Assembly: GCA_044506615.1 (NCBI GenBank)
Contig: JBIQKJ010000005.1
Coordinates: 568-64,567, forward strand
Source of the DNA: Chloroflexota bacterium
GTDB lineage: Bacteria; Chloroflexota; Limnocylindria; Limnocylindrales; CSP1-4
DNA: 64,000 nt
Reading direction: 5' to 3'
The notes beneath the pieces are model-generated. The model had not been told where the DNA came from. It worked only from the letters and a program-made list of their open reading frames with translations, and did no database searches. Position 1 is the stretch's first letter, and every line of letters begins with the position of its first letter. The position numbers were made by a program, and so were the translations under genes. Below, piece after piece: positions 7,826-23,945 of the stretch.

Positions 7826-8511
7826 TGCGGATCCTGGTCGTCGACGACGAACCCGACGTCATCGAGTCGGTCCGGCTCGGCTTCGAGCTCCAGTGGCGCG
7901 AGATCGACGTCCTCGGGGCCGTCGCCGGGGAGGAGGCCCTCGACGTCGTCGAGCAGGAGCACCCGGACATCGTCCTGCTCGACATCGGCCTCCCGGACAT
8001 CGACGGCTTCGAGGTCCTGCGCCGGATCCGTGCCTTCAGCGACGTCCCCGTGCTGATGCTGACCGCGCGCGACGACGCGATGGACAAGGTGAAGGGGCTC
8101 GAGCTCGGCGCCGACGACTACATCACGAAGCCGTTCAACCACCTCGAGCTGATGGCGCGCGTCAAGGCCGTGCTGCGGCGGCTGTCGATGCCGACACCGA
8201 CCAGCCGCGCGCCGTCCTTCCGGGCAGGCGACCTCGAGGTCGACTATGCGGCCCACGAGGCGCGACTCAACGGGGAGCGGCTCGAGCTCACCCCGACTGA
8301 GTACAAGCTGCTGTACCACCTCGTGCGCAACGCCGGCCACGTCCTCCAGCACGGGACGCTGCTCGCCAAGGTCTGGGGCCGCGAGTACGTCGACGAGGTC
8401 GACTACCTGCGGGTGTACATCCGGCGGCTCCGCGACAAGCTCGGCGACGACCCCGAGCGGCCGCGCTACATCCGGACCGAGCGGGGGCTTGGCTACCGGT
8501 TCATCGCCTGA
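7825..8511 (+). CDS. OmpR/KdpE-family response regulator
   Basis: MRILVVDD, LLDIGLPD, GADDYITKPF, wHTH (YIRTERGLGY). TGATG coupling to the kinase. Confidence 0.95.
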   Translation: MRILVVDDEPDVIESVRLGFELQWREIDVLGAVAGEEALDVVEQEHPDIVLLDIGLPDIDGFEVLRRIRAFSDVPVLMLTARDDAMDKVKGLELGADDYITKPFNHLELMARVKAVLRRLSMPTPTSRAPSFRAGDLEVDYAAHEARLNGERLELTPTEYKLLYHLVRNAGHVLQHGTLLAKVWGREYVDEVDYLRVYIRRLRDKLGDDPERPRYIRTERGLGYRFIA

Positions 8512-9759: not shown

Positions 9760-10958
9760 GCGGCTCGCACCCCGTCCTTCCAGACCCCGACGATCCGCTC
9801 GCGAAGCGTCGCGACATCGTAGGGGTCGCCTTCGACGAGCACGAGGTCGCCGATCTTGCCCGACTCGATGGTGCCGAGGTCCGCATCGAGACCCATGAGC
9901 TGGGCCGCGCTGCGCGTCGTCGCCTCGAGCGCCGCCGCGGGCGTCATCCCGCCCTCGACCATCAGCGCGAGCTCGCGCAGGTTCTGCCCGTGCGGGGTGA
10001 CCCCCGAATCGGTGCCCATCGCGATCCGAACGCCGGCCTCGACCGCTCGACGGAACGCGGCCCGGTGGATGTCGACGACCCGGTGCGCCTTGTCGACGAC
10101 CGCCGGCGGCAGCGGGACGCCGGCCGCGACCGCGTCGATGACGCCCTGCGGCGCGACGAGCGTCGGGACGAACCAGGCGCCGCGCGCCTGCATGAGCTCG
10201 ATCGCCTCGTCGTCGAGGTAGATCCCGTGCTCGATCGAGCGGATCCCGGCCCGGAGCGCGTTCTTGATGCCCTCGGCGCCCTGCGCGTGCGCCATGACCC
10301 GGATCCCGGCTGCCGTCGCCTCCTCCACGATCGTCTCGAGCTCGGCGGGTCGAAGGTGCGGGTGGCGCGGGTCGTCGCTCGGCGAGAGGACACCACCGCT
10401 CGTCGCGACCTTGATCACGCCCGCGCCGGCGCGGACGAGCTCGCGGACCTTCCGACGCATCTCGTCGGCGCCGTCCGCAATGCCGGAAGGCCGGCCGGGG
10501 TGCTCGCCCATGAACGGGACAATCGAGCCCGACGGGTACCAGTCGTCACCGTGGCCGCCGGTCTGGCTGATCATCACGACCGAGAGCTGGAGCCGAGGAC
10601 CCGGGATCAGCCCGTCGTCGACCGCCTGCTGGATGCCGAGGTCCGCGCCGCCCGCGTCGCGGACGGTCGTGATTCCCGTCCGGAGCGTCGCGTCGAGGTT
10701 CCGCGCCGCCTCGTAGAACTGGTACGAGAACGGCTGCTGGATGCCCTTCCACGTGTCGACGTCGGAGACGACGACGTGGACGTGGCAGTCGAACAGCCCG
10801 GGCAGGATCGTGCAGCCGGAGGCGTCGATCGCCTCGTCGCCGTCGAGCCGCGGGCCGATGTCGACGATCCGGCCGTTCTCGATTGCGACGTCGCCCGGCT
10901 CCGGGTCGCTGCCAGTGCCGTCGAATACCCGCCCACCGCGGAACACCGTTCTCGCCAC
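9756..10958 (-). CDS. Metal-dependent amidohydrolase (Xaa-Pro dipeptidase-like)
   Basis: PGLFDCHVH, IKV, MAHAQG, SIEHG, GTDSG. Start at GTG after a GAGGGAGG RBS. Confidence 0.92.
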   Translation of the reverse strand: MARTVFRGGRVFDGTGSDPEPGDVAIENGRIVDIGPRLDGDEAIDASGCTILPGLFDCHVHVVVSDVDTWKGIQQPFSYQFYEAARNLDATLRTGITTVRDAGGADLGIQQAVDDGLIPGPRLQLSVVMISQTGGHGDDWYPSGSIVPFMGEHPGRPSGIADGADEMRRKVRELVRAGAGVIKVATSGGVLSPSDDPRHPHLRPAELETIVEEATAAGIRVMAHAQGAEGIKNALRAGIRSIEHGIYLDDEAIELMQARGAWFVPTLVAPQGVIDAVAAGVPLPPAVVDKAHRVVDIHRAAFRRAVEAGVRIAMGTDSGVTPHGQNLRELALMVEGGMTPAAALEATTRSAAQLMGLDADLGTIESGKIGDLVLVEGDPYDVATLRERIVGVWKDGVRAA

Positions 10959-11116
10959 GCGCGTCCTGCCTCCCTCTGCCTGGCTGGGTTCGGACATTCT
11001 CTCCGCCGCGACGGTCGCGCGTCGGGGGGCGGCCGCGAGCCGCGTGCAAGGGCAGCGCAAGACGCACCCTGCGTGGCACGAGCCTCAGGGAAGGGAGCAG
11101 CGCGCAGGCTGGCCGT

Positions 11117-11383
11117 GTGCGCGAGGACAGTGCGGAGGACCTCGACCAGCCAGCTGGCGAGACGACGTCCCCCGGCGGCGATCCGCTGCTCGACGCGCTC
11201 GAGCGGCTGCGGGAAGCGGAGGAGCTCCGGCGGCAGGTCCCGCGCGAGTCTCGGGAGTTCGACGATCGGGTGCGTGACGTCGAGGCCTTGGCGCGTGAGG
11301 TGTTCCGGCTCGCCGAGCTGGATGCAGTCGACCACGAGCCGAGCGACGACGAGCGCGACTTCGGCGACGCGGTGCCTCGCTGA
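11117..11383 (+). CDS. Small acidic coiled-coil hypothetical protein
   Basis: Helical-looking DPLLDALERLREAEELRRQ...VEALAREVFRLAE. Start uncertain. Confidence 0.5.
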   Translation: MREDSAEDLDQPAGETTSPGGDPLLDALERLREAEELRRQVPRESREFDDRVRDVEALAREVFRLAELDAVDHEPSDDERDFGDAVPR

Positions 11384-11488
11384 GACCGCGAGCGACCCCC
11401 GCCGGGGCGTTGGGGGCCGCGTTCGGACCATCCGGCACTGGTCGCCCGGCGACGCCTCGGCCTAGCCTCGACCCAAGGAGGTGGCGAC

Positions 11489-11740
11489 ATGCTGGCGCAC
11501 CAGGTCCGCCTCAGGGTCGTGCCGTGGAGCGATACCTCGTTCACCCACGCGGTCGAGGGGGTCTTCCGCGAGATCGAGGACAGCGGGCTCGCGATCGACT
11601 GTCCGCGCGCCGCCGAGGTGGCCCAATCCATGCTCCGGGAACGCGGCTGGCCCCGCGCGGTCGTCGGGTACTGGCGCAACGTCGACGAGGTCCTGAGCCA
11701 CCAGGCGCACTGGACGGTCTACCGGGAGCGGTCCGACTAG
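11489..11740 (+). CDS. Small hypothetical protein (83 aa)
   Basis: Strong AAGGAGGT RBS and protein-like composition. Confidence 0.7.
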   Translation: MLAHQVRLRVVPWSDTSFTHAVEGVFREIEDSGLAIDCPRAAEVAQSMLRERGWPRAVVGYWRNVDEVLSHQAHWTVYRERSD

Positions 11741-11794
11741 CCCCATCCCGGCGCCTCCAGGGTTGCCCCGCCGCGCACGGGAGCGACCGGCGGC

Positions 11795-11820
11795 GGAACG
11801 TTGCACGGCCGATCATCGTC
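11795..11820 (+). promoter_or_regulatory. Putative ECF-sigma promoter GGAAC-N17-CGTC
   Basis: GGAAC at 11795-11799, CGTC at 11817-11820, 9 nt before the ATG at 11830. Confidence 0.4.
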
Positions 11821-11829
11821 TGGACGATC

Positions 11830-12582
11830 ATGCGACCCGTGATCCGCCGCCTCGCCGTCTTCCTTGCCGTCGCCCTCCTTGTCGTCGGCTGCGCCTCGTC
11901 CGGGGCGGCCAGCCTCGGCCCGGGTTCGAGCCCGGCACCGAGCGCCGGCGCCGCCTCTCCCGCACCGGCTCCCAGCCTCGAGCCGGTCACTGATGCAGAG
12001 GACGCCGTCGCGCGCGTCGTGGCGTTCGACCCGCGACTGACCGGGATCATGCCGCTCGATCCCGATTTCATCGGGCAGTCCTCGTGGTACGAGGTGTCCC
12101 GGGTCGAGGGCGGCTATCGGGTTGACGTCACGATCGGCTGGGGAGACTGCCCGGCAGGCTGCATCGACCGACACACGTGGTCGTACCTGGTCGCCGATGA
12201 CGGCCGGGTTGCCCTCGTCGACGAGGAGGGCGAGCCCGTGCCGTCGAGCGAGTGGCCCTCGCCGGCCGGCACGGGCAAGACCGGGCTGCTGATCCGGACC
12301 GTCGCCGGCCCGACGTGCCCGGTGGAGCGGCCCGACGACCCGACATGTCTGCCGCGTCCCGTGCCTGCCGCCAACCTCGTCGTCACCGACCCTGCGGGGA
12401 ACGAGGTTGCTCGCGCGGTGACCGACGGCGGCGGCGCCATCTTCGTCGAGCTTCCGGCCGGCGAGTACGAGGTCGTCGCCCGCCCGATCGAGGGCTACGT
12501 CGCCTTCCCCGAGCCGATCGATGTCGTCGTCACCGAGGGCGAGACGCCCGTCGAGCTGCTCTACGACACCGGCATCCGCTGA
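11830..12582 (+). CDS. Lipoprotein with C-terminal carboxypeptidase-regulatory-like (beta-sandwich) domain
   Basis: Signal peptide with lipobox LVVGC, Pro/Ser linker, paired Cys (GDCPAGC; GPTCPVE...C), ELPAGEYEV. Confidence 0.8.
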   Translation: MRPVIRRLAVFLAVALLVVGCASSGAASLGPGSSPAPSAGAASPAPAPSLEPVTDAEDAVARVVAFDPRLTGIMPLDPDFIGQSSWYEVSRVEGGYRVDVTIGWGDCPAGCIDRHTWSYLVADDGRVALVDEEGEPVPSSEWPSPAGTGKTGLLIRTVAGPTCPVERPDDPTCLPRPVPAANLVVTDPAGNEVARAVTDGGGAIFVELPAGEYEVVARPIEGYVAFPEPIDVVVTEGETPVELLYDTGIR

Positions 12583-12617: not shown

Positions 12618-12647
12618 GAAGACCCCGGGCAGGTGCCCGGGGTCTTC
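12618..12647. terminator. Bidirectional hairpin terminator between convergent genes
   Basis: GAAGACCCCGGGC-AGGT-GCCCGGGGTCTTC, perfect 13-bp stem. Confidence 0.8.
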
Positions 12648-12681: not shown

Positions 12682-13650
12682 TCAATCCACGAGCTTCACG
12701 ATGTAGACGCCGGTCCCGAGCTGGGACGCCGAGTGGGTGGGATTCACGACGAGCTGATCGGCGTTCACCGGGGAGACGAAGTACCCGCTGATCACCTTGT
12801 CGCTGCCGCCCTGGACCGAGGTGAGCTTGAAGTACGCCCAGCCGACCATCTCGCCCTCATCGTTCACGACGGGCACCGGGAACACCTTGTTGAGGTGCTG
12901 CTCGAGCGCGGTGAACAGCGTCGTGTGGGCACCCGAGTTGAGCGGGCCGATGTCGTCGTCGAGGTAGACGGTGGTGCTGGCGCCGCCGCCGTCGATCAGC
13001 TCGCGGACGCCCTGCGAGTTCGCGTTGCAGGGGTTGCCGCTCGCGGTGCAGAAGATCGTCCAGTTGAACTGGGTGCCGTCCTGGGGCACGTCCTCGTTGC
13101 CGGTGCCCGGCAGCTGGTAGACCTCGGGAACGCAGGTCTGGACGGTCTCGTCGCAGATCGCGCCCGGGAAGGCCTTCTCGTTGAAGAGCAGCGGCATGGC
13201 CCCGATCGCGCCGTTCGGCGCGCCGCTCGAGATCGTCGCCGCAGTCACCGATACCGGCCACTCGGTCATGCCCATCACCGCCGCGAAGTTGTTGCGGTGC
13301 GGCTTCGTGATGTCGACGCGGACGCGCGCGAGCATGCTCGTTGCGGCGACCGTGACGTTCACGTCGACGCTCGACGCGCCGTCGGTGTAGCCGTTCTGGG
13401 TGGTGACCGCATGGGCGGCTGCCTCGGCGGCGGCGGTGCGCTCGGCCGTCGTGCCCGTGGCGTTCAGGTAGGCTGTGGCGCCCGCGATCGAGGCGAGGTC
13501 GGCGACGTTCTGCTCATCGCGCCGCTGCGAGAAGGCGCTCCCGGTGTCGAGCACGAGCCCGACGCCACCGATGATCGCGATCAGCGCAATCGCGAAGATG
13601 ACGAGGACCTGGCCCCGCTGCCCGGGACGAGCGCGATGGCTGGCGTGCAT
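12682..13650 (-). CDS. tadG: TadG-like pilus assembly/tip protein (cassette A)
   Basis: GQVLVIFAIAL...LVLDTG...QNVADLASIAGA Tad_N signature. AAGGAG RBS. Confidence 0.88.
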   Translation of the reverse strand: MHASHRARPGQRGQVLVIFAIALIAIIGGVGLVLDTGSAFSQRRDEQNVADLASIAGATAYLNATGTTAERTAAAEAAAHAVTTQNGYTDGASSVDVNVTVAATSMLARVRVDITKPHRNNFAAVMGMTEWPVSVTAATISSGAPNGAIGAMPLLFNEKAFPGAICDETVQTCVPEVYQLPGTGNEDVPQDGTQFNWTIFCTASGNPCNANSQGVRELIDGGGASTTVYLDDDIGPLNSGAHTTLFTALEQHLNKVFPVPVVNDEGEMVGWAYFKLTSVQGGSDKVISGYFVSPVNADQLVVNPTHSASQLGTGVYIVKLVD

Positions 13651-13667
13651 GGTGGTCGGCTCCTTGC

Positions 13668-14129
13668 TCACGGGATCTTCACCCGGCTGATCGACTCGAG
13701 GGTGTGGCTGCCGAACATCGCGACGATCGGGGTGATCGGCTGGAACTGGGCCCGGACGCGGACCTTGACGAAGTTGCCGGAGCGGCAGCTCGCGTCGGCG
13801 ATCGCGACGTCGGTGACGTCGACGCAGGTCACGTCCGACGACGTGTTGATGACGAGGCTCGGAATGGTTCCGCGCTGCGTCCCGACGACGGCCTGGGCGC
13901 GCGAGCTCGACCCGAGATCGCAGCAGGTGTCGTACGGATGGACGCTGGTGACGCGGGCGATCTCGCGAGCCGCTTCGGCCGTCCCGTTCATCATGTAGAT
14001 CGCCCGACCGAGGTCGAAGATCCCCATGAACAGGATCAGCAGCGGGATCAGGACGACGGCGAACTCGGCCATCGACTGGCCCTCGGTCCGGCGTCGGCGG
14101 GACGGTCGCAGGGAGGTGGGTGTGCTCAT
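13668..14129 (-). CDS. tadE: TadE-family pseudopilin (cassette A)
   Basis: EGQSMAEFAVVL...DLGR...AAREIAR. Confidence 0.88.
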   Translation of the reverse strand: MSTPTSLRPSRRRRTEGQSMAEFAVVLIPLLILFMGIFDLGRAIYMMNGTAEAAREIARVTSVHPYDTCCDLGSSSRAQAVVGTQRGTIPSLVINTSSDVTCVDVTDVAIADASCRSGNFVKVRVRAQFQPITPIVAMFGSHTLESISRVKIP

Positions 14130-14140
14130 CGAGATCGTCC

Positions 14141-15148
14141 TCAGTTCGGCCGGTAGTGCAGGACGATCTCGGTCGAGGTCGAGATGCACTGCGTGTGGTC
14201 GGGGTTCTGGGCCTGGATGCGGCCCTTCTGCCCGTTCGTGAGGTCGTTCCAGATCGTCACGTTCTCGAAGCCCGTGTCCTCGAGCGCCTGCTCGGCTGCC
14301 GACGGCGTCATGCCCATCACGTTGGCGGGGTAGGCGCAGGAGGGCGTCGGCGTCGGGCTCGGGGAGCCGGTCGCGGTCGCGGTCGGCGTCGGCGACGGGC
14401 CGTTGACGGTGATCGTCACGGTGTCGGTGTCGGACCCGGCGAGGTTGATCGCGGTGACGGTAACCGTGTATTCCCCGGGGGTCGTGAACGTGTGCGAGAA
14501 GGTGGCTGAGCCGGTGGCGACGGTACCGTCGCTGACCTGCCACTGCCAGTCGGTCGGCGTCCCGCTCGAGCCCGAGGCATCGAAGTTGACGGTCAGCGGC
14601 GCATTCCCGGAGAGCTGGTCAGCCTGAATGACGGCCACAGGACCCGGCGGGAGCGTGGCGGCCGTCGCGGGCGGGAAGTACTCGACCTGGGCCGTGGCGC
14701 TCGCGTCGAGGTCGAGCGTCTGCCCACCGAAGATGGCGCTGAGGAGCGGCGTCAGCAGTCGGAACGTCCCCTCGACGCTCACCGTGACGTAGCTCCCGCT
14801 CTGCTTCGGGCAGCCCGAGACGCTGCAGTCCATGTCGATGCTGCCGTCCGCAATGGCAATCATCGAGTCCTTCGCCTCGAGCTGGACCCGGCACACGACG
14901 AGGTTCGACGTCGTGTTGCACGGCTGGCCGGACTGGAAGGAGTCAGGCTTCTGGGCGGCCTGCAGCGCGCCCTCCCGGGCGGCGTTGTTGAGCGTGATCG
15001 TCGCGTAGAAGACGCGCCCGAGGTCCAGCGTGGCCGCGACGAGCAGCAGCAGGACCGGGACGACCAGCGCGAACTCGACCAGGCTCTGGCCGCGGCCGCG
15101 TCGGCGGCGCGCTGTCGTGATGTGACGGAACGGGAGCATGGGCGTCAC
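14141..15148 (-). CDS. tadE: TadE-family pseudopilin with PKD and PASTA domains (cassette A)
   Basis: GQSLVEFAL...AAREGA; PKD GNAPLTVNFDAS...FTTPGEYTVTVTA; PASTA PANVMG...AEQALEDTGF...QAQNP. Start may be ATG 15139. Confidence 0.88.
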   Translation of the reverse strand: MTPMLPFRHITTARRRRGRGQSLVEFALVVPVLLLLVAATLDLGRVFYATITLNNAAREGALQAAQKPDSFQSGQPCNTTSNLVVCRVQLEAKDSMIAIADGSIDMDCSVSGCPKQSGSYVTVSVEGTFRLLTPLLSAIFGGQTLDLDASATAQVEYFPPATAATLPPGPVAVIQADQLSGNAPLTVNFDASGSSGTPTDWQWQVSDGTVATGSATFSHTFTTPGEYTVTVTAINLAGSDTDTVTITVNGPSPTPTATATGSPSPTPTPSCAYPANVMGMTPSAAEQALEDTGFENVTIWNDLTNGQKGRIQAQNPDHTQCISTSTEIVLHYRPN

Positions 15149-15296
15149 CGAATGTTCGGAAGGAAACGACGTGCCGATGCTGGATCGGCGCCATTTCAGC
15201 CTTCCTTGAATCGGTGCGCGGACGCATAGCCCGAACGGGGTAACGACCGGAGCCGATGGTCAGCGGGCGAGGCCGGCGCTCGGTGGTCGCAGACAC

Positions 15297-15328
15297 GACG
15301 ACGCCGCGCCTCCCGGCGCGGCGTCGTC
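15297..15328. terminator. Hairpin downstream of cassette B
   Basis: GACGACGCCGCGCC-TCCC-GGCGCGGCGTCGTC, perfect 14-bp stem. Confidence 0.7.
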
Positions 15329-15354
15329 TTCTCCTGGGATCGAGTGCTTGGGGG

Positions 15355-16560
15355 TCAGCGAACGAGCTGAATGCCGATCGCGCCCGGTCTGTTGTCGCCG
15401 TTGCCCCCCGGCGTAATCGGGCCCGCGGTCACGTAGTTCACGAACCAGCCCTTGAGGCAACCGAGGAATCCCGCACCACTCGTCACGGGCACGAGCGGCG
15501 TGCCGGGGGGTGACGCGCACGCGGTCTTGTTGCTGCCCTGAACGAGCACTTCGTGCGTGTAGAACACGCCCAGAGTGTGGATGTAGTACCAGGTGTTGTT
15601 GCCGTGCGGATCGACGCCCGGCAAGCTGCAAATGTCCGTGTCGCCCGGATCCTCGCGGCAGGCCTGGTTGTGAAGGGGGATGAGAACCGGCGTATGAATC
15701 CAGGTCTCGAGCTCATCCTCGACCGAGTTCGGATTGCCCGTCTGAATCTGGAACCAATCCGGCAAGTCAACGGTCGTGTTCAGAGGGCCAATGATTTCGT
15801 CGGCGAGATTCATCCCGGCGACGACATCGAGGAACCCGAAGGCGCCGGTCGACTCACCGGACCCGCGGCACAGGGGCAGAATCGCCATGGTGCTCGCGTT
15901 GCCGTCAGGGTCTCCGGCCGTCGGCAGGTCCTCCATTCCGACGACTGGCCAATAGCCCTCTCCGCTAGCGCCGGGCGGAGGGGCGCCGATCCATGTGCCG
16001 CCGGGGATCAACTCTCCTGAGCCATTGCACTCCGGCACCTTCACCGGGAACGTGATCGGCAGGAGAGCGCAACCGTCTTCATCGGCAACGCATTCGCCGC
16101 TCAGGTTCCCGGCGACGACGGTGGCGTCAGCCGAGGCGGTGAGCTGATTGACGCCCACGACGCGAGAGAAGGTTGTCTGGACGTCCCGATCACCGCCGAC
16201 ACGCACCCCCTCAGCACCCGATGGGATCGGACCGGGGTCATTGACGACGTCCTGGCCGATCGGGTTTCCAAAGTCATCTGTGTAGACGGCCGACCAGTCC
16301 TGGAGGCCGTTCGCCGCAGCTGCCGAGGCGATGGCGGCGTAGACCTGCGCGCCGGTGCGGCTCGCCGGTCCAAGGTTCTCAGCGATGACAAGGGCGCCAG
16401 CCGTAGCCGCCCCATCCGCCCCGTTCTGCGCCAGCCGCTGCTGGGCGAACGCCGCGCCGCCATCGATCAGGAGGCCCGTCATGGCGACGACCACGACGAG
16501 GGCAAGCGCGAAGACGACGATGATTTGGCCTCGCTTCTGGCGGGACCGCTCCGTTGACAT
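15355..16560 (-). CDS. tadG: TadG-like pilus assembly/tip protein (cassette B)
   Basis: RGQIIVVFALAL...LIDGG...QNGADGAATAGA. GAGAGG RBS before MSTERS. Confidence 0.85.
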   Translation of the reverse strand: MSTERSRQKRGQIIVVFALALVVVVAMTGLLIDGGAAFAQQRLAQNGADGAATAGALVIAENLGPASRTGAQVYAAIASAAAANGLQDWSAVYTDDFGNPIGQDVVNDPGPIPSGAEGVRVGGDRDVQTTFSRVVGVNQLTASADATVVAGNLSGECVADEDGCALLPITFPVKVPECNGSGELIPGGTWIGAPPPGASGEGYWPVVGMEDLPTAGDPDGNASTMAILPLCRGSGESTGAFGFLDVVAGMNLADEIIGPLNTTVDLPDWFQIQTGNPNSVEDELETWIHTPVLIPLHNQACREDPGDTDICSLPGVDPHGNNTWYYIHTLGVFYTHEVLVQGSNKTACASPPGTPLVPVTSGAGFLGCLKGWFVNYVTAGPITPGGNGDNRPGAIGIQLVR

Positions 16561-16604
16561 CGGGTACCTCTCGAAGGCTGGGCTGACGGGGCTTCGATGG
16601 CGCG

Positions 16605-17096
16605 TCATGGTTGCCTCGGGCAAGACGCGGACGAGCTGTAGGCCGGGATGTCGGGGTTCGGGCAGATGAACTCGACGGGCAGCTCGGACCGTGCCTGGAA
16701 CGTGATCGGGCCGATGATCGAGGAGAAGATCGGCGTAATCAGTGACCAATCGGACTGCGGTGCGACGACCGCGATGCATCCGACGCGGACTGGCGAACAT
16801 GCAGCGTTGGCAGTCGGATCACCCGCGTTCGGTCCACTCTCCCTGAACTGCACGACCGATCCCAGGTTGGATACGGCTCCCGCGAACGTCGTGGCCTGAA
16901 CTCGCTGACCGATGAGGGCGGGATCTTGATTCACGATCGCGAGGCGGGCGCCTTCCCGCGCGGCGTTCGTCAACCCGTTGTAGAGCAGCACCGCCCGCCC
17001 GAGGTCGAACACCGCGAGGAGCAGCAGGAGGGCGATCGGGATGACAATCGCGAACTCGGCGAGCGTCTGGCCCCAGCCGGCCTTCTGTCGTTCCAC
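16605..17096 (-). CDS. tadE: TadE-family pseudopilin (cassette B)
   Basis: GQTLAEFAIVIP...DLGR...NAAREGAR. Confidence 0.88.
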   Translation of the reverse strand: MERQKAGWGQTLAEFAIVIPIALLLLLAVFDLGRAVLLYNGLTNAAREGARLAIVNQDPALIGQRVQATTFAGAVSNLGSVVQFRESGPNAGDPTANAACSPVRVGCIAVVAPQSDWSLITPIFSSIIGPITFQARSELPVEFICPNPDIPAYSSSASCPRQP

Positions 17097-17098
17097 GG

Positions 17099-18367
17099 CT
17101 ACGGCCCCACCGTGATCGTCGAGTCACAACCACCTGGCTGTGGGTCGACAGTCCCGCCGAGGATCGATTGGAAGTGGATGTCGTAGTTGCCGTTTCCTGG
17201 CCGGTAGAGGACGTCCGTGGTGAAGCCGGCAGCATCCCAGATCCCCTGGGCGGCGTTCTTCTTCCGGTTGGCGAAGTCCGGCACGGTGCACGTGGGCCGG
17301 CTCACGACGATGTAGTCCTCTTTCGTCACTGACGATGTTGTCGTCCCGTCGGACACCGTCAACGTGACGTCGTACGAGCCCTCATCTGCATAGGTATGGC
17401 TCGGGTTCTGCCCCGTGGCCGTGCCGCCGTCTCCGAACTCCCACTGGTAGCTGGTGTAGGTGATTGTGCCACTGCGCACATCGACGAACTGGAAATCGAC
17501 GTCGAGTCCCTCGAGCCCGGACCGCGGGGAGCCAGTGAACTCGGCGATCGGTCCCGTATCCGGGGGTACGGTTACGGTGATCCAGTCATTCAGCTGCTCC
17601 GAATCCGAGCCTGCAGGGTTTCCTACCGTGAGCGAGACCCCCCACGTGCAGGTATCCCCTGGATCTCCGGTGCAGGTGTAGGTGATCGTGTGCGGCCCTT
17701 CGCTCGTATCCACGTCGTCACTCACGTCGCCCGTTGCGCCACCGGTGGTCGCCGGGGCGACGCTGAAGTCCCAGTTCCAACTCGTCGGACCATTCTTTGA
17801 CGTGTCAGTCACTGTCACATCCAGTTCCGACCAACCCGTCCGAGGCGAGACGGTGAACCCAGCAACCGGGGCGATACCGATGGGTGCGCCGCCTCCGGGC
17901 ACGGTCGACACGACCCCTTCCTTAATCGGCATCGTCGCGCTTCCCGTCGCCAGGATCGAATTGCCGACGACCTGCGAGATGATCGGCGTGATCAGCCCGA
18001 ACTCGCAGCTGATGCTGACCTGGACGTGAGCGCCGAGCGCCGTCCCGCCGAAGATCGGGTCGGGAAGAGGATCCTGCGGTTCGCACCCGACCGCGAAGCG
18101 GGCGTCGTTCGAGATCATTTGGCGATAACGCCCCTGCTTGGACGCATCGGGGGTCGCGTCCCAGGCAGTGGCGTTGTTCGCGGCGTAGTTAGCCGCGACC
18201 CGAGCCATCTGCTGAAGGTTCACCCAGCCCAGGTAGATCCGCCCGAAGTCCAATGCGACGAGGACCAGGAGTAGCAGCACGGGAACGAAGAGCGCGAATT
18301 CGACGAGGCTTTGGCCTCGACGGCGCAGTCGGCGGCGGCTCGCCTGAGTGGCGGCAGGGACCGGCAT
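17099..18367 (-). CDS. tadE: TadE-family pseudopilin with two PKD domains and a PASTA-like domain (cassette B)
   Basis: GQSLVEFAL; two PKD repeats (W.W.F; YQWEFGDG...PSHTY...G.YDVTLTV); CTVPDF...AAQGIWDAAGF. Confidence 0.88.
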   Translation of the reverse strand: MPVPAATQASRRRLRRRGQSLVEFALFVPVLLLLVLVALDFGRIYLGWVNLQQMARVAANYAANNATAWDATPDASKQGRYRQMISNDARFAVGCEPQDPLPDPIFGGTALGAHVQVSISCEFGLITPIISQVVGNSILATGSATMPIKEGVVSTVPGGGAPIGIAPVAGFTVSPRTGWSELDVTVTDTSKNGPTSWNWDFSVAPATTGGATGDVSDDVDTSEGPHTITYTCTGDPGDTCTWGVSLTVGNPAGSDSEQLNDWITVTVPPDTGPIAEFTGSPRSGLEGLDVDFQFVDVRSGTITYTSYQWEFGDGGTATGQNPSHTYADEGSYDVTLTVSDGTTTSSVTKEDYIVVSRPTCTVPDFANRKKNAAQGIWDAAGFTTDVLYRPGNGNYDIHFQSILGGTVDPQPGGCDSTITVGP

Positions 18368-18441
18368 CAGTACCCCCAAGGAACTAGGAGAATCGTCCCG
18401 TATGGTGGCGGGGGCACCTTACAGTCGACCTTACCGCGGTG

Positions 18442-18495
18442 CCGGTGGGCGCCGGACTACGGCATCCGGTGGGCGCCGGACTACGGCATCCGGTG
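18442..18495. repeat. 24-bp tandem repeat x2.25 in a divergent promoter region
   Basis: CCGGTGGGCGCCGGACTACGGCAT at 18442-18465 and 18466-18489, then CCGGTG. Confidence 0.9.
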
Positions 18496-18579
18496 CGGAT
18501 CGCACCCCCCGACCGTTCAGGCCGGCCCGTACCACTGGATGGCTGGCGCGCATCGGCCGTGGGCGCCACAGTCCGGCGC

Positions 18580-18786
18580 ATGAAGAAGCGCGTTCTCGCC
18601 GCGTTCCTGTGGTTCTACGTCGGCTGGTATGCCGGGGCGTTCGTCGTGGCCTTCCTCGGCATCAGCCCCGCGTTCGGTCCGATCCTCGGGGTCGCCGCGG
18701 CCGGCCTCGTGGTCGGTGACCCGCGCCGCATCATCTGGACCGCGCCGTCGGCGCGGGCCGGGGAGCCCGCAAGCGAGCCCGCGTAG
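18580..18786 (+). CDS. Small membrane protein (68 aa)
   Basis: MKKRVLAAFLWFYVGWY..., two TM segments. Probably leaderless (CACAGT 7 nt upstream). Confidence 0.75.
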   Translation: MKKRVLAAFLWFYVGWYAGAFVVAFLGISPAFGPILGVAAAGLVVGDPRRIIWTAPSARAGEPASEPA

Positions 18787-18809
18787 TCACTCCGTCGGGC
18801 GACACATGA

Positions 18810-18840
18810 AAGAGCCGGGTGCCTGTCGCACCCGGCTCTT
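18810..18840. terminator. Bidirectional hairpin terminator
   Basis: AAGAGCCGGGTGC-CTGTC-GCACCCGGCTCTT, 13-bp stem between convergent genes. Confidence 0.8.
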
Positions 18841-18868
18841 CCCTTCCCCCGGATCGTTCGCCGGAAGG

Positions 18869-19858
18869 TCAGTTGACCAGCTTCAGGCTGTACGACCCGA
18901 GATAGCGCGGGCAGTCGTCGAACGCGCAGTTCACGGTCAGCCGCTGGCTCAGGAACGGGCTCACGAAGTAGCCGTTGACCTTCTTCGAGCTGCCGCCTTC
19001 AGCCGACGTGACGTGGAAGGTCGCCCATCCCATGAAGTTCCCGTTGAGGTCGACCACCGGGACCGGCACGTCCTTGCCCGACAGGCACTTGTTCACGCTG
19101 CCCTGGTGCGAGCAGTCGTTGTTGTTGTCGAACAGCGTCGTGTGGTTGCCGTTGTTGTGCTGGCCGATGTACTCGCCGAACTCGATGGTCTTCTCGATGA
19201 CCAGCGAACCTTCGAGGATGTTCTTCACCTCGTTGCTGTTGACGTTGCCGGTGCCGAAGTTGGTCCAGGCAAAGTCGCTCCCGCCGGTCGGGGCGTGGTT
19301 GTTCGTGTCGCCGAAGGCGAATGGAGCGCTCGGGTTCGCATACTGCGGGAGCGGCTGACCGTCGCTGTCGAAGGCTTCGATGCTGAAGATCATCGGAGCG
19401 ATCCCGGTCGCCGTGTCCGGGAACCCCGTCTGTGCCGTCGCGGTCGTCGAAACCGTCCACTGGTTCATCCCGACGATCGTCGCGAAGCTGTTCTGGTGCG
19501 GCGCCGAGATGTCGACGGTGACCGACGCACCGTTCGTCAGATCGATCCCGACGTTCACCGTCACGCCGCCGGCGCCGTGGGTGTACCCGTTGGCGGTCGC
19601 CGAAGCTCGCGCAGCGGAGATCGCAGCGGCGGACCGGGTTGACGGCTGGTCGTAGTTGACGATGAACGCATTGGCCCCTGCGAGGGCCGCGAGATCCGCG
19701 GCGCTCTGCTCGTTGCGGCGCTGCGCGTAGGCGGAGCCACCGTCGAGCACGAGGCCGACCATCGCGATCATCGCGACGAGACCGAGCGCGAACAGGACGA
19801 TGATCTGGCCCCGTTCGTCGTTGCGCCCCCGAAGGGTGCGCGAGGAGTGCATGCGCAT
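18869..19858 (-). CDS. tadG: TadG-like pilus assembly/tip protein (cassette C)
   Basis: RGQIIVLFALGL...LVLDGG...QSAADLAALAGA. Close paralog of the cassette A TadG (shared PVPVV...GW...GYFVSP). Confidence 0.88.
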   Translation of the reverse strand: MRMHSSRTLRGRNDERGQIIVLFALGLVAMIAMVGLVLDGGSAYAQRRNEQSAADLAALAGANAFIVNYDQPSTRSAAAISAARASATANGYTHGAGGVTVNVGIDLTNGASVTVDISAPHQNSFATIVGMNQWTVSTTATAQTGFPDTATGIAPMIFSIEAFDSDGQPLPQYANPSAPFAFGDTNNHAPTGGSDFAWTNFGTGNVNSNEVKNILEGSLVIEKTIEFGEYIGQHNNGNHTTLFDNNNDCSHQGSVNKCLSGKDVPVPVVDLNGNFMGWATFHVTSAEGGSSKKVNGYFVSPFLSQRLTVNCAFDDCPRYLGSYSLKLVN

Positions 19859-19880
19859 CTGGGTGTTCCCTTCCATGGGG

Positions 19881-20303
19881 CTACTGGATCTCGATCGTGC
19901 TGCTGCCCTTCATCTGGAACGGCCCGAGGCCACCCAGGAGCGGGGTCAGCACGGTGAATGGAGCGGTCACCTCGACCCGCACGAGGTCGCCCGGCAGGCA
20001 CCCCGAGGCCTTGGTGACGGGCGGCGTGCCGGGCGTCATGCAGGTGAAGACAGGGTTCTGCATCCCCGGGACGAGTGCCTTCTGGGTGTTCGTCGTGGCG
20101 GTGACGGCCGAGCTCGAGCCGAGCGGGCTTCCCGGATGGACGCTCGCCGTCCGGGCGACCTCGCGGGCCGCCTGCGACACGCCGTTGTACACGTAGATGC
20201 CGCGGCCGAAGTCGACGATACCCATCACCAGGACGAGGAACACGATGATCGCGAGGGCGAACTCGACCAGCGCCTGACCGCGACGCGTCCGGCGCCCGCT
20301 CAT
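19881..20303 (-). CDS. tadE: TadE-family pseudopilin (cassette C)
   Basis: [10 protein letters not shown]...DFGR...QAAREVAR. Confidence 0.9.
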
Positions 20304-21202
20304 GGCTTCACCGACTTCGTCACGCTGTGCGTGCCCGCCGAGTTCGAGACCGTGAGCGTCACGTTCTTCGAGCTCGCGTTCCCGAACGTGTACGTGGGGT
20401 TCTGCTGCGATGACGCGCCGCTGCCATCACCGAAGTTCCACGACCAGATGAGCCCGCATGTCGGCTCGTTCATGTGGGTCGACGTGTCCGTAAATGCGAC
20501 CGTCTTGTTGCCGAGGCTCTGCGAACTGAAGTTCGCCACCGGAGTCACGCATGGCAGCGGCGTCGGCGTGGGAGTCGGAGACGGCGACGGTGTCGGGCTC
20601 GGGCTGGGCCCGGTCGTCGGGGTGGCCGTCGGCGTCGGCGAGGGCGTCGGGGTCGGCGTCGGCGACGGCGACGGAGTGGGGGTCGCGAGCGTCCCCGAGA
20701 TCGTGGGGGCTGTCCGGATCTGGGCAACGGCCACGCCGTCGAAGGTCACGTCCTGCCCGCCCGTGAACGCCGCCAGGAGCGGTGTGATCAGCCGGAAGTG
20801 TCCCGTGACGCTGACGGTGACGGTGTTGCCGAGCCCCGCTGCGCAGCTGGAGGGGCTGCACGTGCGGGTCACGTCGGTGTGGCTGACCGTGACGAACCCG
20901 CCCTGAGCCTCGGTCGTGACGCGGCACATGACCTTGTTGTTGGGTCCGCACGGCGAGCCGGCCTGCCAAGCGGTCGCATCGTCCCCGAGCGCCGCAGCGA
21001 CCATCGCCCCTTCTCGGGCGGCATTCTCCACCGTGATCCGGGCATAGAAGATCCGCCCGAGGTCGAGGGCTGCGACCATCAACAGGAGGAGGATCGGCAC
21101 CACGAGCGCGAGCTCGACAAGTGCCTGGCCGCGCGGCGTGCGCGGACGATGGCGGACGTCGCGAGCTGCGCGCACGCGCAGTCGCCAACCGAATGGCTGC
21201 AT
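20300..21202 (-). CDS. tadE: TadE-family pseudopilin with PT-rich linker and PKD domain (cassette C)
   Basis: [10 protein letters not shown]...NAAREGA; (PS/PT)n linker; WSWNFGDG...QNPTYTF...VTLTVSN. Start uncertain. Confidence 0.88.
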
Positions 21203-21261: not shown

Positions 21262-21293
21262 GTCTTGCAAGAACCTTGCAGCCAACCTTGCAA
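21262..21293 (-). promoter_or_regulatory. Three tandem CTTGCA repeats (11/12-bp period) upstream of cassette C
   Basis: CTTGCA at 21264, 21275 and 21287. The last two extend to AACCTTGCA. TATCCT -10-like box just downstream on the minus strand. Confidence 0.6.
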
Positions 21294-21396: not shown

Positions 21397-22854
21397 TCAG
21401 CCCTCGCTGGCGTGCTCCGCGGGGAGGTACACGCTGAAGGACGCCCCGCGCCCGGTGACGTTCGGCTCGAGCACGAGATCTCCAGCCATCGCTCGGCACA
21501 GCTCCCGCGACACGAACAAGCCGAGCCCGCTGCCCTCGTCCGGTCCGGTCTCGGCCCCGCGGACGAAGCGGCCGAAGAGCCGGTCGCGGTCGGCCTCGGC
21601 GACGCCGGGCCCGCCGTCGGTGATCGTGAGCCGAAGGCGTTCGGTGGCCGCGTCGGGCGCGACCTCGATCGACACGGGCGCCCCGCGCCCGTACTTCACC
21701 GCGTTGTCGAGCAGCGCCCACAGCACCTGGTCGAGCTGATCGGGGTCGGCGATCGCGAGCCACCCGCTCGACCGGTCCTCGAGCCTGAACGGGGTCTCGG
21801 TCGAACCCATCGCCTCCCACGTGCGCTTGGTCCGCGCTGCCACGTTGACGACCTCGCTGCGCGGCTTCAGCGCACCCGACTCGAGGCGCGTGACCGTCAA
21901 CAGCTGCCGAACCATCCGCGATAGCCGCTCCGACTGCTCCCCGATGACCTCGAGCCGACGATCCGGTCGGTCGCGGCGGAGCTGATCGGCGTGCGCGCGG
22001 ATGCTCGTGAGCGGCGTCTGCAGGTTGTGGCTCACGCCGCGGAGGAAGTCGTCCTTCGCCGCGTCGAGCTCGAGCAACTGCTGGTTCTGCGCCTCGACGC
22101 GCTCGAACAGCTGGGCATTCCGGATCGCGACCGCCATCTCGCTTGCGAACAGGTCGAGCAGATCCTGGTCGGCACGGGCCCACGGCCGGAGCGGCGGCAG
22201 ATGCCCGATCAACACGCCGAGGCTCTCGTCGCCGGCGCGCAGGATCGCGCGCAGCGGCCGCTGCTCTCCGGGGACCACCTCCTCGATCGGGACCGTCGCC
22301 GGGTCGCCGAGCAGGACGCGGGCATCGAGCAGGTCGAACGCGCGCTTCGCCTCGCTCGCCGTCCGACCGACGAGGAACGAGACGCCATCGCGCGGCGACA
22401 CGTCGACGATCGCCTCGAGGATGCGCGCCAACTGCCGGTCCCGTCGCTCCAGATCGGCGGCGAGCCGGTTGTGGCTCTCAGCGAGCCGGGCCAGCTCGTC
22501 GTCTCCTACGGCAGTGATCGGGGTCGTCAGGTCGCCTGCCGACACGCGATCGACGGCGGCCGCGATCGCCCGCAAGGGCCGCGTCAGGTCGGTCGCGATG
22601 AGGTACGAGGCGACGATCGCGATGAGGACCGTCACGGCCATCGCGAACAGCAGGATCCGCCCGAGCGTCGGGTCCGACGAGCCGCCCACGACATTCGCAG
22701 CCAGCGCAACGATGCCGAACGCCGCCAGCGGCAGGACGGCCAGCGCGATCAGGGCGGCCGTCAGGCGTGTTCGGAAGGAGAAGCCGCGAGGCGGGGGTTC
22801 GGGGCCGAGCTCCTCGTGGAGGTCGAGCTCGAGGTCGGGGGGCGCTTCAGCCAT
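21397..22854 (-). CDS. Membrane sensor histidine kinase (2TM-HAMP-GAF-HisKA-HATPase)
   Basis: HAMP (TRPLRAI...GDL...DELARLAESHN), H-box VSHNLQTPL, DNAVKY, DGGPG, GSGLGL. Confidence 0.92.
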   Translation of the reverse strand: MAEAPPDLELDLHEELGPEPPPRGFSFRTRLTAALIALAVLPLAAFGIVALAANVVGGSSDPTLGRILLFAMAVTVLIAIVASYLIATDLTRPLRAIAAAVDRVSAGDLTTPITAVGDDELARLAESHNRLAADLERRDRQLARILEAIVDVSPRDGVSFLVGRTASEAKRAFDLLDARVLLGDPATVPIEEVVPGEQRPLRAILRAGDESLGVLIGHLPPLRPWARADQDLLDLFASEMAVAIRNAQLFERVEAQNQQLLELDAAKDDFLRGVSHNLQTPLTSIRAHADQLRRDRPDRRLEVIGEQSERLSRMVRQLLTVTRLESGALKPRSEVVNVAARTKRTWEAMGSTETPFRLEDRSSGWLAIADPDQLDQVLWALLDNAVKYGRGAPVSIEVAPDAATERLRLTITDGGPGVAEADRDRLFGRFVRGAETGPDEGSGLGLFVSRELCRAMAGDLVLEPNVTGRGASFSVYLPAEHASEG

Positions 22855-23584
22855 TGCCGGCGTCGCCGTTCGTGCGGACGAGCCGGTACCCGACGCCGCG
22901 GACCGTGAGCAGGTGCACGGGGCGGTTCGGATCGACCTCGATCTTCTGCCGCAGCCGGCGCATGGTCACCCACACGTACGAGGGGTCGGCGTCCTCGGTC
23001 TCCGCCCATCCCCTCGCGAGCAGCGTCTCGGTCGAGACGACCTGGCCGAGGTTCGCGGCGAGCGCGTAGAGCAGACGGGACTCGGTCGGGGTGAGCTGGA
23101 CGGTCGTGCCGGCGACCGTTGCCTCGCGGCGATGGAGCTCGAGCGTCAGGTCCGGCCCGAGGACGAGGCTCTGGCGCGGCACCTTGTCGCCGAGGCGCCG
23201 CATGACCCGATTGATTCGGGCGCGCAGCTCCGGGTAGTGGTATGGCTTGGTGACGTAGTCCTCGGCCACCTCCTCGAGCAGGTCGGCCTTGGAGTCGCCG
23301 GCGTCGATCGCGGACAGCACGATGATCGGCAGGTCGGCGCGGGCCTTGATCTCGCGAGCGAGGGACAGCCCGTCCATGCGCGGCATCATCATGTCGATGA
23401 TCAGGAGGTCGGGCCAGCTCGTCTGGAGTCGACGGAGCGCTTCGTTGCCGTCGCGCGCGGTCATGATCTCGTAGCCGTCGTCGCGGAGCTGCTCCGCGAG
23501 CAGCACGAGCAGCCCGGGGTCGTCGTCGACGATGAGGATCCGCGGTGCGCTGCCGCCCGGGGCGCCGGGCACGCCGCTCAACAT
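22847..23584 (-). CDS. OmpR-family response regulator
   Basis: ILIVDD, IIDMMMP, DYVTKPY, LTVRGVGY. Leaderless-type TACCAT 7 nt upstream. Confidence 0.94.
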   Translation of the reverse strand: MLSGVPGAPGGSAPRILIVDDDPGLLVLLAEQLRDDGYEIMTARDGNEALRRLQTSWPDLLIIDMMMPRMDGLSLAREIKARADLPIIVLSAIDAGDSKADLLEEVAEDYVTKPYHYPELRARINRVMRRLGDKVPRQSLVLGPDLTLELHRREATVAGTTVQLTPTESRLLYALAANLGQVVSTETLLARGWAETEDADPSYVWVTMRRLRQKIEVDPNRPVHLLTVRGVGYRLVRTNGDAGNG

Positions 23585-23945
23585 GGCGCCGATGGTAGCG
23601 CCGGGAGCATGGCACTCGGGCGGTGCCCGCGGACACCGGAATGCGGGCGTCCGGTGCGATTACCTACGGTAATGGTCAATCTGACGTAGTTGATTCGACC
23701 GATCGGACCCGTACCATTGGCCGTCCATTCGCGGACGTCGGCGTCATCGGCGTACGCAACAGAGGGTGCATCGGGGGCCGGGTCCTCCGCGGCGGTCGCA
23801 CTTTCAGCACTCATCGCTCTCGTTTTCGACCGTTCGCCGCGCGTCTTCGGCCAACCGCCGTTCCTGCAGCCCAGAGCGGAACGGTGCCGGGGGGTTGGGG
23901 CCGTGTTCCCGCGGCCGTCGGTGCACCGGGGAAGTGAGGACTCTG

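Follow-up and report, generated by a model that had tools for sequence, protein, structure and literature searches.

Three tandem minor-pilin cassettes in a soil Chloroflexota genome, a probable repertoire of tips for one Tad pilus encoded elsewhere

Background

Exchangeable tips on a Tad-like pilus are known from Myxococcus xanthus, whose Kil pilus is served by four paralogous KilL/KilM/KilN clusters (Tip1-4), three of them located away from the core (Herrou et al., Nat Commun 2025, PMC12075869). The Kil tips, which expose variable domains, are genetically interchangeable on one Flp filament: any one set primes the pilus, which is lost only when all four are deleted, and together the tips widen the prey range (PMC12075869). 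Homologs of Kil tip1-4 are reported to be restricted to Myxococcota, other bacteria having single TadEFG sets inside their tad loci (PMC12075869). Here we analyse a stretch of 64,000 nucleotides (nt), called the window below, from contig JBIQKJ010000005.1 of a soil Chloroflexota (Limnocylindrales) genome of 33 contigs (GCA_044506615.1, 3.48 Mb, 86% complete). The window has a GC content of ~70% and carries at positions 12682-21202, on the minus strand, nine genes arranged in three cassettes of three, named A, B and C. This region is a tandem array of three predicted operons, each a Tad minor-pilin set; with further sets outside the window, they probably supply up to five alternative tips to a single pilus whose genes lie elsewhere in the genome.

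The canonical tadE-tadF-tadG genes of Aggregatibacter, the Caulobacter cpaJ/K/L region and Pseudomonas (Tomich et al. 2006, as cited in PMC12075869) share with these cassettes the PF07811 and PF13400 N-termini, the composition of two small pilins and a large one, the G/XXXXE[FY] motif in the TadE type and the absence of the glutamate in the TadG type. In the canonical loci, according to the same citation, one set lies inside the tad locus, whereas the present core lacks such a set and all five are encoded at other loci.

Compared with the Kil system, the common points are the presence of several paralogous clusters, in which two small TadE/F-like pilins accompany a large TadG-like pilin, and the location of most clusters away from the core. 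The differences are the following. The host belongs to the Limnocylindrales Chloroflexota, considered monoderm in the literature, with no known predatory lifestyle and no T3SS* (type III secretion system) link. A conserved OmpR-type two-component system precedes three sets arranged in tandem, which have a common upstream box. Modular domains are carried here also by the TadE-type pilin (PKD, PASTA), not solely by the TadG-type pilin, and the core is devoid of a set of its own. Since Kil tip homologs have been reported only in Myxococcota, the array should be regarded as an analogous bank and not as a member of the Kil gene family. Our literature search turned up no account of such tip banks in Chloroflexota. 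Interchangeable Tad tips are already known from Myxococcus; here they would be linked to a conserved sensor-regulator pair and to a common DNA box.

Alternative tips also exist in another class of pili: type IVa pili have alternative minor-pilin/PilY1 sets, three of them in M. xanthus, and monoderm type IV pili have modular pilins. The array would resemble them in having several gene sets and alternative tips for one machine, with adhesive modules grafted on a pilin scaffold. It differs by its pilus class (Tad/IVc), by its protein families and by the nature of the grafted modules, which are PKD and PASTA-like.

Results

Gene organisation of the array

The nine open reading frames (ORFs) are intact and are ordered TadE(+PKD), TadE, TadG in each cassette. 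An initial annotation, made from the sequence alone, had recognized three triplets of the same order and strand, and the Pfam domains confirm it. The slash in the motifs below marks the predicted cleavage position.

20300 to 21202, minus strand: A1, TadE minor pilin; Pro/Thr linker, PKD domain at the C-terminus (Pfam TadE 57.9 bits, PKD_4 43.6 bits; G/QALVEL cleavage-type motif)
19881 to 20303, minus strand: A2, short TadE-type minor pilin, 4-nt overlap with A1 (Pfam TadE 54.9 bits; G/QALVEF motif)
18869 to 19876, minus strand: A3, TadG-type large minor pilin (Pfam Tad, PF13400, 45.2 bits)
18808 to 18842, minus strand: hairpin 3' of cassette A, between the convergent A3 and 68-aa genes (-40.3 kcal/mol, z -7.2)
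18580 to 18786, plus strand: gene of a small membrane protein of 68 amino acids (aa), between A and B, convergent with A3 and divergent from B (ORF)
17099 to 18367, minus strand: B1, TadE minor pilin with PKD and a C-terminal extension (Pfam TadE 41.3 bits, PKD_4 75.8 bits)
16605 to 17096, minus strand: B2, short TadE-type minor pilin (Pfam TadE 54.6 bits)
15355 to 16560, minus strand: B3, TadG-type large minor pilin with a C-terminal domain unrelated to those of A3 and C3 (Pfam Tad 30.2 bits)
15297 to 15328, minus strand: hairpin 3' of cassette B, perfect over 14 bp (-36.6 kcal/mol, z -5.5)
14141 to 15148, minus strand: C1, TadE minor pilin with PKD, Pro/Thr linker and PASTA-like domain (Pfam, structure model)
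13668 to 14129, minus strand: C2, short TadE-type minor pilin (Pfam TadE 47.5 bits)
12682 to 13671, minus strand: C3, TadG-type large minor pilin, 4-nt overlap with C2 (Pfam Tad 40.4 bits)
12618 to 12647, minus strand: hairpin 3' of cassette C, perfect over 13 bp (-32.2 kcal/mol, z -4.4)

For B3, the longest ORF (to 16800) runs into B2, and the start that fits the Tad N-terminus is located at ~16560. Within the cassettes, consecutive genes either share 4 nt or stand a few to ~44 nt apart; the gaps between cassettes measure 206 and 489 nt. The initial annotation had given each cassette an upstream intergenic region; the spacer between A and B is however not empty and contains the 68-aa ORF. No Pfam match was obtained for this small membrane protein, of which copies 50-70% identical are found inside the cassette arrays of four relatives (loci L007, L008, L011 and L013).

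A hairpin with a perfect stem of 13-15 bp lies directly 3' of every third gene, in agreement with the initial annotation (13 and 14 bp for C and B, 13-15 bp for A). The folding energies range from -32 to -40 kcal/mol, the z-scores (-4.4 to -7.2) comparing them with those of shuffled sequences. The hairpins were judged by their folding because they lack U-tracts; a scan with consensus promoters and terminators detected no sigma-70-type promoter, and its terminator-like sites were not above shuffles. We infer that the hairpins are terminators of the type common in high-GC bacteria. As each cassette is followed by one of them, the cassettes would be separate transcription units. The possibility that the hairpins are copies of one genomic repeat was rejected, the three stem sequences being unrelated.

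Cassettes A and C are 35, 39 and 41% identical at positions 1, 2 and 3, respectively (A3 and C3 being 41% identical over their full length), and B is 26-31% identical to either of them. At all three positions the nearest paralog of A is that of C, and B stands apart; B3 resembles A3 and C3 only over the first ~150 residues. The GC content at third codon positions (GC3) is 0.79-0.81 in cassette B, versus 0.87-0.94 in A and C and 0.91-0.94 in the neighbouring genes, which places B at the 3rd-5th percentile among long ORFs of the genome. The impression that B is more divergent and, by eye, AT-richer is thus borne out. The TadG proteins of A and C, described as close paralogs in the initial annotation, are nearest paralogs, but with 41% identity they are not close.

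Domains and structure models of the encoded proteins

The Pfam gathering cut-offs were 22.9 bits for TadE (PF07811), 22.3 bits for Tad (PF13400) and 23.2 bits for PASTA (PF03793). A1, A2, B1, B2, C1 and C2 all exhibit a TadE domain above the cut-off, with scores of 41-60 bits. A3, B3 and C3, of 329-401 aa, exhibit an N-terminal Tad domain above the cut-off followed by a large C-terminal region, in which no Pfam domain was found. Unlike in many TadG proteins, no vWA was detected there, nor any other recognised adhesive module.

At the start of the hydrophobic helix, the six TadE-type proteins share the sequence motif G/Q-x-[LM]-[VA]-E-[FL], where cleavage is predicted; among 30 C1 homologs, residues G20, Q21 and E25 do not vary. 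In the TadG-type proteins G-Q also precedes a hydrophobic stretch and the glutamate is absent. The leader-cleavage signature R/K-G/Q is common to the Flp, TadE and TadG proteins. G/XXXXE[FY] is the prepilin-peptidase signature of Flp, TadE and TadF (Tomich et al. 2006, as cited in PMC12075869).

In the model of C1 (predicted local distance difference test, pLDDT, of 88.9), residues 19-66 form the alpha-1 helix, after which come a small beta domain, the PKD domain (170-249), a Pro/Thr linker that is disordered and, last, a small alpha/beta domain (272-335). The helix followed by strands at 104-154 corresponds to a pilin fold in the monomer. The PKD part superposes on the PKD domain of collagenase (ColG) with a template modelling (TM) score of 0.84 and 1.6 Å, and a second, internal PKD-like stretch of B1 aligns with the PKD domain of C1. 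The last domain of C1 is probably, though not certainly, a PASTA domain. The PASTA profile scores 21.6 bits on the full protein and 24.9 bits when residues 268-335 (the last 68) are scanned alone, and residues 272-335 form one helix and three strands in the model. Sequence matches of this part in the PDB are limited to two weak 'Protein kinase' chains (E 0.4-1.3); the fold search with C1 was dominated by its PKD domain and gives no decision on PASTA.

The model of C3 (pLDDT 78) starts with an N-terminal alpha-1 helix of 54 residues, followed by beta-rich domains. Cysteine pairs are conserved in the C1 and C3 families, which suggests exported proteins. Among the candidates scored, more than 500 metagenomic homologs of C3 and more than 700 of C1 were collected, which their sources label 'TadG', 'PKD repeat protein' or 'Candidatus Limnocylindrales bacterium'.

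A single Tad core without minor pilins, and two further cassettes

The absence of pilus machinery noted in the window was verified by profile searches, which detected no flp, cpaF, tadB/C, prepilin peptidase or cpaB on its contig. The flp/tad core, which the initial annotation had proposed to locate, is found once in the genome, on contig C2 at ~110.8-118.2 kb. Over all contigs we counted one T2SSE (PF00437) ATPase, two T2SSF (PF00482) platform genes and four flp-like genes, all on C2, with the gene order: NarL-type two-component system, four flp, cpaB, receiver-TadZ fusion, cpaF, tadB, tadC, DUF192 gene. Two of the flp genes are 87% identical and two are divergent; the mature ends of their products, G/QGLAEY, are nearly identical in all four. 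One prepilin peptidase is encoded, on contig C25 at 38.8 kb. A full Tad (type IVc) set is thus present (Flp, CpaF/TadA ATPase, TadB/TadC, CpaB, TadZ and prepilin peptidase), entirely outside the window. Neither TadE (PF07811) nor TadG (PF13400) was found on C2, and the core is therefore without minor pilins.

Three cassettes stand in the window as had been noted, but the bank of the genome is larger and totals five minor-pilin cassettes in three loci, namely four triplets and one TadE+TadG doublet. The two additional ones are both on contig C14:

Cassette D, contig C14: TadE, TadE and a TadG of 753 aa, preceded by the closest paralog of the array regulator
Cassette E, contig C14: TadE and a TadG of 640 aa, followed by a second CpaB-like gene

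The gene that directly follows cassette E encodes a CpaB/RcpC-like protein (SAF + RcpC) and is located far from the core, at C14 199837-200739 (locus L020, 3838-4740).

A two-component system and a direct-repeat box upstream of the cassettes

The array is preceded by a two-gene unit and each cassette by a box, as follows.

22847 to 23584, minus strand: OmpR-family response regulator, first gene of the unit preceding the array (Pfam Response_reg + Trans_reg_C)
21397 to 22854, minus strand: membrane histidine kinase (HAMP-HisKA-HATPase) paired with the regulator, immediately 5' of cassette A (Pfam)
21273 to 21292, minus strand: box A, TGCAAGGT-TGGC-TGCAAGGT (GCAAGGT-TGGCT-GCAAGGT), ending 70 nt before the A1 start
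18416 to 18435, minus strand: box B, GGTAAGGT-CGAC-TGTAAGGT (GTAAGGT-CGACT-GTAAGGT), ending 48 nt before the B1 start
15191 to 15210, minus strand: box C, TTCAAGGA-AGGC-TGAAATGG (TCAAGGA-AGGCT-GAAATGG), ending 42 nt before the C1 start

The regulator (80-90% identical) and the kinase (62-76%) are found at the same place upstream of the arrays in each of the five relatives whose array was available with sufficient flanking sequence. Within the present genome, cassette D is preceded by the closest paralog of the regulator (59% identity, versus 41% or less for all others).

The element common to the cassettes is CAAGGT-N5-GCAAGGT, a 7-bp direct repeat with a period of 12 nt. It was also found upstream of 8 cassettes in 5 other genomes, several of them with the flank GCACCGAT; the orthologous box upstream of the C1 ortholog in L009 has the same GCACCGAT flank. 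To rank sites genome-wide, we used a weight matrix built solely from the sites of the other genomes. Box A came first in the present genome (29.0 bits), a site located between flp4 and cpaB in the core came second (19.4 bits) and box B third (19.2 bits). The core site (C2 ~112221-112240, locus L021) lies past the terminator hairpin of the last flp gene and ahead of cpaB. It is inverted, on the strand opposite to cpaB. The inverted box also occurs in L017 (~5648-5667) and likewise in the genome G015, and its position and orientation are kept in at least 5 genomes of the family. An antisense transcript running over flp could start from this site, or the site could influence the cpaB promoter.

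PhoB/OmpR-type regulons are characterized by direct-repeat boxes overlapping the -35 region. The present organisation is comparable in that a winged-helix regulator stands beside its putative targets and that 7-bp repeats about one helical turn apart lie 42-70 nt before the starts. The period is 12 nt instead of 11, the core copy is inverted relative to cpaB, and binding is here a prediction. These distances, together with the occurrence of the box in both orientations, fit a DNA site better than an RNA-level element or a CsrA-type site. From architecture and linkage, the OmpR-type regulator of the array is the likely protein to bind this box. Autoregulation of the regulator-kinase operon was also considered, but the best site upstream of the regulator reaches only ~0 bits.

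The initial annotation had proposed that the modules are separately regulated, allowing a switch of adhesion target. The same box on all three cassettes and the single OmpR-type pair upstream point instead to one regulon under common control, and a switch between tips is not supported. One regulon with sites of graded quality would therefore be favoured over separately regulated modules.

The divergent control region that separates the 68-aa gene from cassette B contains two tandem copies of a perfect 24-nt direct repeat, ACCGGATGCCGTAGTCCGGCGCCC (18455-18505, minus strand), immediately ahead of box B.

Conservation of the array and of the core in relatives

The number of cassettes was compared across relatives, as the initial annotation had suggested. 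Genomes of the same family usually have 1-8 TadG N-termini, often ~3 kb apart. Neither TadG nor the ATPase was found in a sister family with genomes of 1.1 Mb. In the phylum, 112 of 201 sampled Chloroflexota genomes have at least one TadG-type gene, many of them having 2-7. The cores of two other genera (G015 and G010) are syntenic with the present one and likewise devoid of minor pilins. In genomes assembled in few contigs, core and cassettes are 70-850 kb apart or on separate contigs.

In a genome of the same genus the order of the array is the same: regulator, kinase, A, small gene, B, C. There the regulator is 89% identical, C3 64% and the position-A TadG ~30% (~30-55% for the cassette at position A). 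In other genera the regulator-kinase pair and cassette C (52-65% identical) are retained, while the other cassettes vary in number and type. Relative to G015, C1-C3 are 57-60% identical, CpaF 90%, and TadB and TadC 78%. Taken together, motor and regulator are conserved, and the tip sets would be exchangeable and quick to change.

Two peculiarities of the relatives' arrays were recorded. In L012 (contig C9 of G014), a segment of 1,292 bp containing both TadE genes is present twice with 100% identity (7172-8376 and 10896-12100). The TadG genes after the duplicated TadE pair are only 45% identical, and the first ~415 nt downstream are 86% identical. This suggests gene conversion or a recent duplication, with a constant TadE pair and a variable TadG; an assembly artefact is another possibility. 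In L007 and L008 (genomes G002 and G003, 20 contigs, 75-79% complete), several cassette genes appear as two or three separate ORFs, for which indel errors of long-read assembly are a more likely cause than pseudogenes.

Neighbouring genes

Divergently from the regulator-kinase pair, a gene at 23766-28781 (plus strand) encodes a surface protein of 1,671 aa with six Big_9/cadherin-like repeats and three PKD domains. The N-terminal part of this protein is conserved at the corresponding position in two genomes of the genus (L007, L008), and the protein may be a further adhesin governed by the same control region. On the other side, convergent with cassette C, a lipoprotein-like gene with a CarboxypepD_reg/SpaA-like prealbumin fold lies at 11788-12582 (plus strand). 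Its C-terminal part is conserved beside cassette C in L007, L008 and L014, and L009 matches only the N-terminal residues 60-148.

Discussion

Proposed function of the cassettes

Each set consists of a TadE pilin with a linker-borne PKD domain (and in C1 also a PASTA-like domain), a short TadE pilin and a large TadG pilin whose C-terminal domain varies. On the model of TadE/F/G and of KilL/M/N in Myxococcus, the three proteins would be cleaved by the single prepilin peptidase of the genome. Their N-terminal helices would join the set into a trimer priming the assembly of the Flp filament; the trimer would then stay at the filament tip with its variable domains exposed, so that tips of different composition may differ in function. 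As the only motor has no minor pilins of its own, the core would have to draw them from cassettes A-C and from the two cassettes of C14. Minor pilins prime filaments and the Kil pilus is lost only without all four sets, so that the use of the cassettes by the single core appears as the simplest reading. The box common to the cassettes and to the flp-cpaB spacer is a further tie between the cassettes and the pilus genes. The cassettes are probably co-controlled via the repeat at the -35 position, to which the regulator is predicted to bind, with the same box standing inverted in the core.

The bank of tip modules for a pilus elsewhere, which the initial annotation had put forward together with separate regulation, is therefore indirectly supported in its first part by the single core without TadE/TadG, the common signature and the box, and not supported in its second. 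That annotation had also considered that some copies might be pseudogenes or that the genome might have no Tad motor; all the frames are intact and the motor exists.

Alternative explanations and points of doubt

The four flp genes of the core, next to five cassettes located elsewhere, leave room for another explanation, in which each cassette is the fixed partner of a particular Flp pilin and the tips of the resulting distinct filaments are not interchangeable. It is in line with a part of the Myxococcus work, which ties minor Flp pilins to particular tips (PMC12075869). The counts are however unequal, with four pilins for five cassettes, and the cassette number runs from 1 to 8 among relatives. 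Moreover, the mature N-termini of the Flp pilins are so nearly the same that helix-bundle compatibility is unlikely to discriminate between them, and we judge such fixed pairing improbable. About as improbable in our view is that the cassettes function independently of the pilus, as short membrane-anchored pseudopilus-like complexes that display the PKD, PASTA and TadG domains at the cell surface or help to cross or bind the cell's own wall. This would account for the fact that the cassettes never adjoin the motor and for the PASTA-like domain of C1, a peptidoglycan-binding module by its Pfam family description, but it leaves the core without any priming minor pilins. It also has to face the box common to the cassettes and the flp-cpaB spacer, and the sister family in which TadG and the ATPase are both missing, which indicates that the two co-occur.

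A simple amplification, in which the cassettes are redundant copies of a single tip set that drift without functional differentiation and persist by chance or because of gene dosage, fits the tandem copies in the same orientation, as expected from unequal crossing-over, and the identical TadE-pair duplication seen in one relative (L012). Yet the paralogs are old (26-41% identity), and none of the nine frames is broken, their processing motifs being conserved as well. Each type is also maintained, as the 52-65% identity of the cassette C orthologs across genera indicates, and the C-terminal domains differ in kind, PASTA being present only in C1 and the C-terminus of B3 being unrelated to the others. 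Of the three explanations, this one appears the least plausible.

Several results weigh against the interpretation of the array as a repertoire of tips for the distant core. The best score with the NCBIfam model TadE_Rv3655c (NF041390) is 27.6 bits for a cut-off of 40, and several proteins have no match; the TadE models stay below their cut-offs, unlike for the canonical proteins. The fold search with the C3 model against the PDB returned no match at E below 0.1, hence no solved structural relative. As no NCBIfam model was reached and the TadG model has no structural relative, the TadE/TadG assignments rest on the N-terminal Pfam domains. The PASTA domain could equally mean contact with the own cell wall as adhesion to a target. 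The genome being 86% complete, a second motor or minor pilins linked to the core could be missed. Some relatives do contain an orphan second CpaF-like ATPase of ~600-700 aa (L015 8993-10789, on contig C17 of G002; L016 7988-10108, on contig C2 of G015). In G002 it is 64% identical to the core CpaF of the present genome. No tadB/C or flp lies beside the orphan gene. At the syntenic site here (C26, ~121-126 kb) this gene is absent and the site is contiguous. A second motor was considered and found no support here, the relatives' orphan gene not being in a tad locus and its contiguous site here being without it.

The doubts extend to the box. With the relatives' matrix, box C is weak (14.5 bits, rank 18) and no good site was found for cassettes D and E. 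The strict pattern has 38 matches in 16 genomes of the family versus 33 for the reversed control, so that the pattern itself is not over-represented and the enrichment lies only in the location of the matches. Among the 38, 12 are just upstream of cassettes in sense orientation and 4 are in the flp-cpaB spacer of the core, inverted and ~2.9 kb from cpaF, where well under one match is expected by chance for regions so small. From this distribution along the genomes we concluded that the box is a real cis-element common to the cassettes and the core.

A further step would be to see in the array a dedicated tip regulon. The sensor pair would respond to a cue from the environment or from a surface, the box would turn on the tip operons in graded strength (A strong, C weak), and its inverted copy between flp and cpaB would adjust the pilin and the motor. 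One switch would thereby couple tip choice to pilus production, and the PASTA tip would target the peptidoglycan of neighbours. This scenario is speculative and we give it a minor chance, slightly above that of fixed pairing with Flp pilins or of a pilus-independent role.

Conclusions

We retain as the probable interpretation that the array provides part of a set of alternative tips for one Tad pilus. Tad pili are among the most widespread adhesion organelles, and the determinants of their binding specificity are only starting to be understood. The sole experimental case of exchangeable tips is that of the predator Myxococcus, and the same design would be found here in a different setting. This design appears common in an abundant, mostly uncultured soil phylum considered monoderm, about half of the 201 genomes having TadG-type genes. 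The conserved sensor-regulator pair and the short DNA box offer two experimental handles that the Myxococcus system lacks. Finally, candidate adhesive modules can now be named for soil Chloroflexota: PKD, PASTA-like, and TadG domains of unassigned family.

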